From Escherichia coli (GTDB lineage: Bacteria > Pseudomonadota > Gammaproteobacteria > Enterobacterales > Enterobacteriaceae), in NCBI RefSeq assembly GCF_003334305.1, contig NZ_QOWS01000030.1: a stretch of DNA of 41,498 nt; one strand, written 5' to 3'. Positions 32,589-34,423 of this stretch are shown piece by piece. Every line of letters begins with the position of its first letter. Position 1 is the stretch's first letter. The translations under genes were made by a program, and so were the position numbers. The notes below the pieces were generated by a model that was not told the origin of the DNA, made no database searches, and saw nothing but the letters and a program-made list of their open reading frames with translations.

Positions 32589-33635
32589 ATGCCAGTTTTG
32601 CAGTGGGGAATGTTATGTGTGCTATCACTTCTCCTTTCTATTGGTTTCCTCGCGGTACATCTCCCGGCGGCGCTATTACTTGGGCCGATGATCGCCGGGA
32701 TCATCTTCAGTATGCGCGGAATTACTCTGCAACTTCCCCGCTCCGCTTTTCTCGCCGCGCAGGCCATTCTTGGCTGCATGATTGCGCAAAACCTCACTGG
32801 TTCGATTCTCACCACGCTGGCCGCCAACTGGCCGATCGTGCTTGCTATTTTACTGGTGACGCTGCTTTCCAGCGCCATCGTGGGTTGGTTATTGGTGCGC
32901 TATAGCTCACTGCCTGGAAATACCGGTGCCTGGGGTTCTTCTCCAGGCGGCGCAGCGGCAATGGTCGCTATGGCGCAAGATTACGGCGCAGATATTCGCC
33001 TGGTGGCGTTTATGCAATATCTGCGAGTGCTGTTCGTCGCGGGGGCCGCTGTTCTGGTCACCCGCATGATGCTGGGTGATAACGCTGAAGCGGTTAACCA
33101 GCAAATCGTCTGGTTCCCGCCAGTGAGCATTAATCTCCTGCTTACGATTTTGCTCGCAGTCGTTGCCGGTACGGCGGGATGCATGCTGCGTCTTCCTTCC
33201 GGCACGATGCTCATCCCGATGCTGGCGGGCGCAGTGCTCCAGTCTGGTCAGCTCATCACCATCGAACTACCGGAATGGCTGCTGGCGATGGCGTATATGG
33301 CAATTGGCTGGCGGATTGGTCTTGGTTTCGATAAACAAATCTTACTGCGGGCACTACGCCCGCTACCGCAAATCCTGCTGTCGATTTTTGCTCTGCTGGC
33401 TATTTGTGCGGGTATGGCGTGGGGGCTGACCCGGTTTATGCACATTGATTTTATGACTGCCTACCTCGCCACCAGTCCCGGCGGGCTTGATACCGTGGCG
33501 GTCATCGCCGCAGGGAGCAATGCCGATATGGCGCTTATTATGGCGATGCAAACCCTGCGCCTGTTCAGTATTTTGCTGACGGGGCCAGCCATTGCGCGGT
33601 TTATTTCAACCTATGCGCCGAAGCGGTCGGCCTAG
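32589..33635 (+). CDS. abrB: AbrB-family membrane protein (putative regulator/transporter, AbrB duplication family), 348 aa
   Basis: ORF-track entry 32511..33635; recognised start [40 protein letters not shown] at 32589; polytopic hydrophobic protein. Confidence 0.85.
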
Positions 33636-34423
33636 TGCTGGCAGCCTGGACACCAGTAAAACGGGCGCGAGGACAACGTGGTTTTCTCAATGATGCCGCC
33701 ACAGCGTTCGCACAGTTCGCCATCACGATGAAAAACCTTAAAGCGAAACAGCGCCCCATGATGCTTATTCTCATCCACCTGCCCCCGCGTAGCGTAAGAA
33801 AACCGAGGAATCTCCAGTAACGCGTGTGCGAGTGCATCCAGTTGCGCCGCATTGAGATCTTTCGCTTTATGATTTCCAGTCAACCCAACCTGCCAGAGGA
33901 TCTCCACCCGCAAATAATTGCCAAGCCCAGCCAGAAACGCCTGATCGAGCAGTAATCCTGCAAACTGACGGTTACGAAAGCGCGGTGACAATAACCGTTC
34001 CTTTACCACCTCCGGCGTCAGATTCGGATCCAGCACATCGGGACCAACGCGTTGTAAAAACGGATGCGTGGTCAGTTGTTCCGGCCTCAACATCTCAATA
34101 TCCGAGGCGCTATAAAGCAGAATGGTTTTGTCAGCCGTTTGCAGTTTTACCCGCAATACTCGCGTGGTCTGCGGCTCTTCGCCGGTATCAACCACGCGCC
34201 AGACGCCGTAAAGCTGATTATGGCTGTAGAGCGTTAAGTCGTTGGAAAAATGAGTTAACAACGCCTTACCACGCGTTTCCACATGGGTAACGTGTTGACC
34301 GATAAGTTGTGATTGATAAGTTTTTAACTGCGGGAAGGCAAACCAGACATCAGTTAGTGGTTTGCCTTTGATCGCCGCCTCCAGGTTATCCGCTGCACGG
34401 CGGATCTCCGGGCCTTCAGGCAT
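33632..34423 (-). CDS. nei: Endonuclease VIII (Fpg/Nei-family DNA glycosylase/AP lyase), 263 aa
   Basis: ORF 33632..34423 minus; [34 protein letters not shown]... (N-terminal PEGPE catalytic motif), C-terminal zinc finger [26 protein letters not shown]. Confidence 0.96.

Follow-up and report, generated by a model that had tools for sequence, protein, structure and literature searches.

Convergent nei and abrB genes of Escherichia coli end within a single CTAG, a minimal tail-to-tail overlap best explained by passive compaction

The convergent genes nei and abrB of Escherichia coli run into each other at their 3′ ends, with both stop codons held in one CTAG tetranucleotide. This overlap is real, ordinary and already known: it is annotated in RefSeq, its tetramer class was described in 2007 and the gene pair appears in a 2025 catalogue of excludons. 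We analysed the junction in a 41,498-nt stretch of the E. coli chromosome (the window; Table 1) and compared it with the equivalent position in other species. Taken together, the evidence makes it very probable that this is an ordinary minimal tail-to-tail overlap whose layout is best explained by passive compaction, the 3′ tails of the two transcripts being a tolerated by-product.

Direct reading of window positions 33620..33640 gives GAAGCGGTCGGCCTAGTGCTG, with the in-frame context ...TCG GCC TAG TGC... at the junction. In the list of open reading frames (ORFs), abrB stops at the TAG at 33633..33635 on the plus strand, and nei stops at a TAG on the minus strand that runs from 33634 down to 33632. 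The two coding sequences (CDSs) overlap by 4 nt, of which 2 nt (TA) are common to both stops. An initial annotation of this DNA had described overlapping CTAG stops in two tail-to-tail genes without intergenic space. Its coordinates agree exactly with the sequence read and the ORF ends, the two genes indeed share 4 nt, and re-checking the stops against the ORF list returned the same pair.

A convergent CDS overlap of 1–3 nt is impossible, because no stop-codon end complements another stop-codon end; the minimum is 4 nt, reached only through [CT]TA[AG] (YTAR). The nei/abrB junction belongs to this class, as the genes lie on opposite strands with facing 3′ ends, one such tetranucleotide holds both stops and both stops are true protein ends. 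As in the class at large, the opposite-strand stops share TA, here inside CTAG, in the shortest convergent overlap possible. Lillo & Krakauer (2007, PMC2174442) named CTAA, TTAA, CTAG and TTAG as the minimal convergent overlaps and noted a jump at length 4. Among their 1890 convergent overlaps from 58 genomes, 1218 were of at least 5 nt, and the 4-nt class therefore makes up about 36%. For E. coli, the same study counted 58 convergent overlaps, while a later one counted 75 convergent overlapping pairs (Huvet & Stumpf 2014, PMC4161906). As an arrangement, then, the nei/abrB overlap is not unusual. It is one of three convergent junctions around the window, the others being phrB/dtpD and sucD/mngR; in one 50-kb piece of the MG1655 annotation, none of 5 convergent pairs overlapped. 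The junction does not differ in kind from other YTAR overlaps, and its spelling, CTAG, is the most depleted tetranucleotide in the window; it occurs 5 times there, where a Markov-2 model predicts 28.7 copies and base composition 161. The overlap is kept despite this strong depletion. CCAG and CTGG are in excess across the window.

With Nei as the probe, 80 loci were drawn from a collection of species-representative genomes, a single locus for each species, and both stops were located in every one. Nei stops at the same codon in 80/80 species. A convergent abrB lies within 3 kb of nei in 19 of them, all Escherichia, Salmonella or Citrobacter. The 4-nt overlap is present in 13 of these 19 species: seven are Citrobacter, and the other six make up the full set of sampled Escherichia species-level groups. 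The tetramer reads CTAG in 5 of them, TTAG in 3, TTAA in 3 and CTAA in 2. Elsewhere the two genes are separated by spacers of varying length (Table 1) or, in 2/19 species, by an extra gene. Overlap and spacer lineages have the AbrB C-terminus at one and the same residue position, and their Nei is always 263 aa; with both protein lengths constant, these lineages therefore differ in the spacer and not in the proteins. The last Nei codon ends in a pyrimidine in every overlap lineage (CAY, His; once CGC, Arg), so that this base plus TA reads as a stop in reverse complement. YTAR is already present at the nei stop in 22/67 loci that have no overlap, and the antisense stop therefore often pre-exists without any abrB. 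Both states occur within Citrobacter, and change may have gone in either direction, by spacer loss or by spacer gain.

In the remaining 61 species there is no abrB in the flank, and nei mostly faces gltA over a short spacer. Of the 61 loci without abrB, 29 have a hairpin with a T-run no more than 120 nt from the nei stop, compared with 0/13 overlap loci (Fisher p = 0.001, a value that is illustrative only, since the species are not phylogenetically independent). The 48-nt nei/gltA spacer of Klebsiella michiganensis, AAAAAACGCGCC-TGAA-GGCGCGTTTTTTT, exemplifies the bidirectional-looking intrinsic terminators that fill this position in other Enterobacteriaceae. A GC-rich hairpin between the stops, flanked by an A-run and a T-run, is found at the nei/gltA junction of many other genera; the nei/abrB junction of the window, in contrast, has no spacer and no hairpin with a T-run. 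In E. coli, gltA keeps a strong terminator of its own (Table 1), and only nei is left without one. We considered whether this gltA terminator is a relic of the Klebsiella nei/gltA terminator, but the sequences differ and homology is unsupported. In most other Enterobacteriaceae, about 50–150 nt separate gltA from nei, and this spacer often contains a hairpin that has an A-run on one side and a T-run on the other. REP-like palindromes of the form GCC[TG]G[AG]TGGCG...CTTA[TC]C[CG]GGCCTAC also occur in the post-nei spacer, where they replace the classic terminator.

The interval between nei and gltA evidently behaves as an insertion/deletion hot spot. In Citrobacter werkmanii, an AraC-family regulator gene stands in place of abrB and stops 2 nt away from the nei stop (TAG-AT-CTA); the same replacement is found in four further loci of this Citrobacter group (L016, L018, L022 and L028). 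A 631-aa ORF comes after the AraC-family gene. In Citrobacter sp. R56, an ORF of 286 aa lies between nei and abrB and ends 9 nt before the abrB stop. The N-terminus of its product is hydrophobic and signal-peptide-like, and an NCBIfam search with it gave no match. On the far side of abrB, the window and K-12 have an intact fimbrial operon, of which FDAARGOS_1297 retains only a partial pseudogene. The operon is absent from the cryptic-lineage isolate Escherichia sp. MOD1-EC7003, in which gltA is the next gene past abrB (fimbrial variation can be seen at loci L003, 410..805, and L008). That several different genes lie tightly tail to tail at this place favours passive compaction over a functional link under selection.

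On the basis of these observations, we propose that genes have come and gone in the nei–gltA interval and that abrB would in this way have come to abut nei in Escherichia, Salmonella and Citrobacter. Functionless spacer would then have been lost down to the last position that spares both proteins, the 4-nt YTAR overlap. A nei gene whose final codon has a pyrimidine as its third base would always offer that position, since Y-TA reads as a stop on the opposite strand. Once formed, the overlap would be maintained by purifying selection on the two stops, which would let the first base switch between C and T and the fourth between G and A but allow no other change; the occurrence of all four spellings matches this prediction. 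Each transcript would enter the antisense strand of its neighbour because no intrinsic terminator fits between the stops, and the untranslated antisense tails would be ended by Rho within a few hundred nucleotides, as published for the nei strand and predicted for the abrB strand. The nei and abrB mRNAs would accordingly end in complementary 3′ tails, which at low expression are most likely a by-product and not a regulatory device.

Published data bear directly on the nei strand. Adams et al. (2021, PMC7815308) report a Rho termination region at MG1655 position 747036 on the plus strand, antisense to abrB (score 2.87, p 7.6e-5). Reads numbered 68 upstream and 30 downstream in the absence of bicyclomycin, and 75 and 95, respectively, in its presence; the resolution is set by an 800-nt window and by low read counts at nei/abrB. 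Position 747036 lies 310 nt past the nei stop, at about 33322 of the window, on a mapping that assumes no indel (abrB has 1047 nt in both genomes and the alignment is gap-free). These published data show that Rho-sensitive transcription on the nei strand reaches about 300 nt into antisense abrB. The mapped position sits between two stretches in which C exceeds G on the nei strand, modestly so, with a C/G ratio of 1.85 at +176..250 and about 1.6 at +276..375 and near 1 elsewhere. In that study, 51.5% of Rho regions are antisense, more than fall into any other class, and the bicyclomycin-sensitive region on the nei strand resembles its Rho-terminated antisense or 3′ read-through RNAs; the adjoining C-over-G stretches are compatible with this. 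The likeness has two limits in the same data (PMC7815308): the terminated RNA may be nei read-through or may start antisense inside abrB, and the tables hold neither a Rho region nor a 3′ end for the abrB strand here. Downstream of the abrB stop, the C-over-G profile is clearer than on the nei strand (2.45 at +76..150 and 2.17 at +226..300), and from composition this stretch is predicted, as a prediction only, to be the Rho loading and termination zone for abrB read-through.

The initial annotation had argued that, with no DNA between the stops, the transcripts must therefore extend into each other. For the nei strand, this is borne out directly by the Rho region; for abrB, the support is the listing of the pair as an excludon. 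The title of Gifford & Wallace (NAR 2000) describes nei as the terminal gene of an operon, and the minus-strand transcripts that cross the junction therefore most likely start in the upstream pxpA/pxpC/pxpB/ybgI region.

The excludon listing raises the main alternative, that the overlap was itself selected as a functional excludon, in which colliding polymerases, RNase III cutting the duplex of the two 3′ tails, or both would make expression of ybgI-pxpBCA-nei and abrB mutually exclusive. The initial annotation had likewise suggested that antisense or collision effects could couple the repair glycosylase to the membrane protein. The pair stands in Table 1 of Sanmartin et al. (NAR 2025, PMC12288877) among the 165 convergent excludons that ExcludonFinder called in MG1655, the criterion being that RNA-seq coverage of the two genes overlaps in 50% or more of 58 datasets. 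Taken as a class, excludon pairs have more conserved synteny and less single-cell co-expression than controls, and 40% of E. coli excludons were captured as double-stranded RNA (dsRNA) by p19 (PMC12288877). The overlap has also been kept throughout Escherichia and in part of Citrobacter. The status of nei-abrB itself is one of coverage overlap only, in that reciprocal expression, dsRNA and RNase III dependence were described for the class or for other pairs (relBE-ydfV), and our literature search found no pair-specific evidence for nei-abrB. With only 68 and 30 reads per 800 nt at the locus, polymerases are unlikely to collide often. The pairing is missing from most Enterobacteriaceae and is not conserved beyond Escherichia, Salmonella and Citrobacter; even there, Salmonella and some Citrobacter keep both genes with spacers of 6–75 nt or an extra gene, and in some Citrobacter other convergent partners abut nei or abrB as tightly. 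Selection on the stop codons fully explains the conservation of YTAR. We therefore regard a functional excludon as unlikely; if true, it would link oxidative base-excision repair to the role of AbrB. The further-reaching version, in which the junction is selected, the complementary 3′ tails serve to switch between ybgI-pxpBCA-nei and abrB, and abrB or nei phenotypes are partly effects on the partner, is highly unlikely; it would tie two DNA-damage-related loci together in cis.

Passive compaction with Rho-dependent ends also has to be weighed against intrinsic terminators embedded in the neighbouring gene, with a defined hairpin just inside each partner ending the transcript in place of Rho. 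Such elements have precedent, since rho-independent terminators were predicted for 23/116 genes in convergent overlaps (about 20%; Lillo & Krakauer, PMC2174442) and TransTermHP places ‘overlapping terminators’ in 146/165 convergent excludons (ExcludonFinder, PMC12288877). At this junction, minimum free energy (MFE) folding gives a 5-bp hairpin, GCCGA-CCGCT-TCGGC, immediately after the nei stop, but it has no U-tract and is not conserved in E. albertii or Citrobacter. A consensus terminator scan of window positions 32000..35500 found nothing downstream of either stop, with total hits at the shuffle expectation; the sole minus-strand match (33758..33739) lies inside nei, upstream of its stop. 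A search for inverted repeats up to 200 nt around the junction found none. The curated Term-seq lists of Adams et al. (PMC7815308) contain no 3′ end in MG1655 746400-746999, a gap consistent with diffuse Rho-type ends and low expression, and the SMRT-Cappable-seq supplements have no rows for nei, abrB, ybgL or pxpA. By the scan, the inverted-repeat search and the Term-seq lists, no intrinsic terminator accounts for the 3′ ends of nei, and local read-through is bicyclomycin-sensitive. Embedded terminators consequently have very little probability. An Rfam scan of the whole window placed no family at the junction; its gathering-threshold matches were a CpoB/ybgF RNA thermometer (1004..1142, minus strand, 142 bits) and a tRNA (5..77, minus strand), both unrelated.

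All of these readings presuppose that the genes and their C-termini are called correctly. Nei matches the NCBIfam endonuclease VIII equivalog NF007763 over residues 1-263/263 (505 bits, cut-off 252) and its alignment to the sequence of the E. coli crystal structure 1K3W runs residue by residue through the terminal ...YWCPGCQH; the last Cys of its C-terminal CxxC pair lies three codons ahead of the stop. AbrB matches TIGR03082, ‘membrane protein AbrB duplication’ (288 bits), and Pfam PF05145 (1e-97, residues 29-339 of 348), and its C-terminal length is constant across species. At its other end, RefSeq places the start at the ATG at 32589, while the mechanical ORF reaches an upstream TTG at 32511. 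The gene identities proposed in the initial annotation are thereby confirmed. RefSeq names the product of 32589..33635 (plus strand) ‘AbrB family transcriptional regulator’, and the sequence is visibly hydrophobic; because the two family matches run near full length in such a protein, the ‘regulator’ label looks like a carry-over of naming and not a predicted DNA-binding function. The gene is named as an ‘aidB regulator’, and a literature search for abrB/aidB found nothing relevant to the function of E. coli abrB.

The junction is stable across E. coli genomes. A 1-kb piece centred on it is 100% identical in strain M8, and the nei/abrB locus was found in 5425/5426 complete E. coli genomes, at ≥95% identity in all but one. 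The RefSeq annotation has an identical 4-nt overlap in MG1655 (nei 745935..746726, plus strand; abrB 746723..747769, minus strand) and in K-12 GM4792, M8 and FDAARGOS_1297. The junction is invariant across these lineages, and neighbouring third-codon positions vary. With the locus in 5425/5426 complete genomes, sequencing error is ruled out. The idea that one stop is wrong through a frameshift, sequencing error or mis-annotation, for which we found no evidence, is already refuted by the full-length match of Nei to the equivalog model and the crystal-structure sequence, by the domain coverage and kept C-terminal length of AbrB, and by the same junction in independent genomes from several phylogroups and species, which together exclude the mis-called C-terminus that the initial annotation had named as its own refutation.

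Table 1. Positions of the features discussed. Coordinates are those of the window unless a comparison locus or species is given.
Feature	Source	Position or size	Strand	Evidence or remark
CTAG tetranucleotide, both stop codons inside	window	33632..33635	both	sequence read, ORF ends, RefSeq overlap
nei CDS, endonuclease VIII, 263 aa	window	33632..34423	-	NF007763, PDB 1K3W, fixed stop in 80 species
abrB CDS, 348 aa, membrane protein of AbrB-duplication family	window	32589..33635	+	TIGR03082, PF05145, RefSeq
pxpA, pxpC, pxpB, ybgI	window	34459..37531	-	upstream of nei, same strand; annotation
Mechanical ORF, 83 aa, at/across junction	window	33601..33852	-	frame not that of nei or abrB; no support as gene
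Mechanical ORF, 61 aa, at/across junction	window	33635..33820	+	frame not that of nei or abrB; no support as gene
C>G region 176-375 nt downstream of nei stop	window	33257..33456	-	antisense to abrB; includes the ~33322 Rho position
C>G region 51-325 nt downstream of abrB stop	window	33686..33960	+	antisense to nei; composition profile
CTAG copies	window	5438, 33632, 34617, 36689, 37105		shared stop site is 33632
gltA terminator-like hairpin	window	27193..27220	+	12-bp stem then TTTTTAT; 27 nt after gltA stop
Fimbrial genes ybgD/Q/P/O	window	~27557..32437		between gltA and abrB; variably present
phrB/dtpD convergent junction		41-nt gap		
sucD/mngR convergent junction		103-nt gap		terminator-like hairpin
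nei/abrB spacer	S. arizonae	6 nt		
nei/abrB spacer	C. sedlakii	25 nt		
nei/abrB spacer	S. diarizonae	54 nt		REP-like sequence
nei/abrB spacer	C. amalonaticus S646	75 nt		
AraC-family gene convergent to nei, in place of abrB	C. werkmanii (L015)	3795..4643	-	
Extra 286-aa ORF, on nei's strand	Citrobacter sp. R56 (L019)	3846..4706	+	similar ORF in L037
REP-like element after nei	Salmonella diarizonae (L012)	3793..3846		
REP-like elements downstream of nei	several Enterobacter, Lelliottia and Pluralibacter species (L043, L051, L052, L060, L063)			

What this analysis adds to a known overlap is comparative. All four permitted spellings occur at one junction across Escherichia and Citrobacter; a hairpin terminator often occupies the equivalent position elsewhere, with none in E. 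coli, where published evidence points to Rho; and in other lineages nei or abrB has an unrelated gene packed against it just as closely. In practical terms, mutations that disrupt the 3′ part of abrB or nei, whether by knock-out or by insertion, delete or change the untranslated 3′ tail and termination zone of the partner, and such effects should be considered when the mutant phenotypes of either gene are interpreted. The locus serves as a textbook illustration of convergent genes compacted to the 4-nt limit, with termination handed to Rho.
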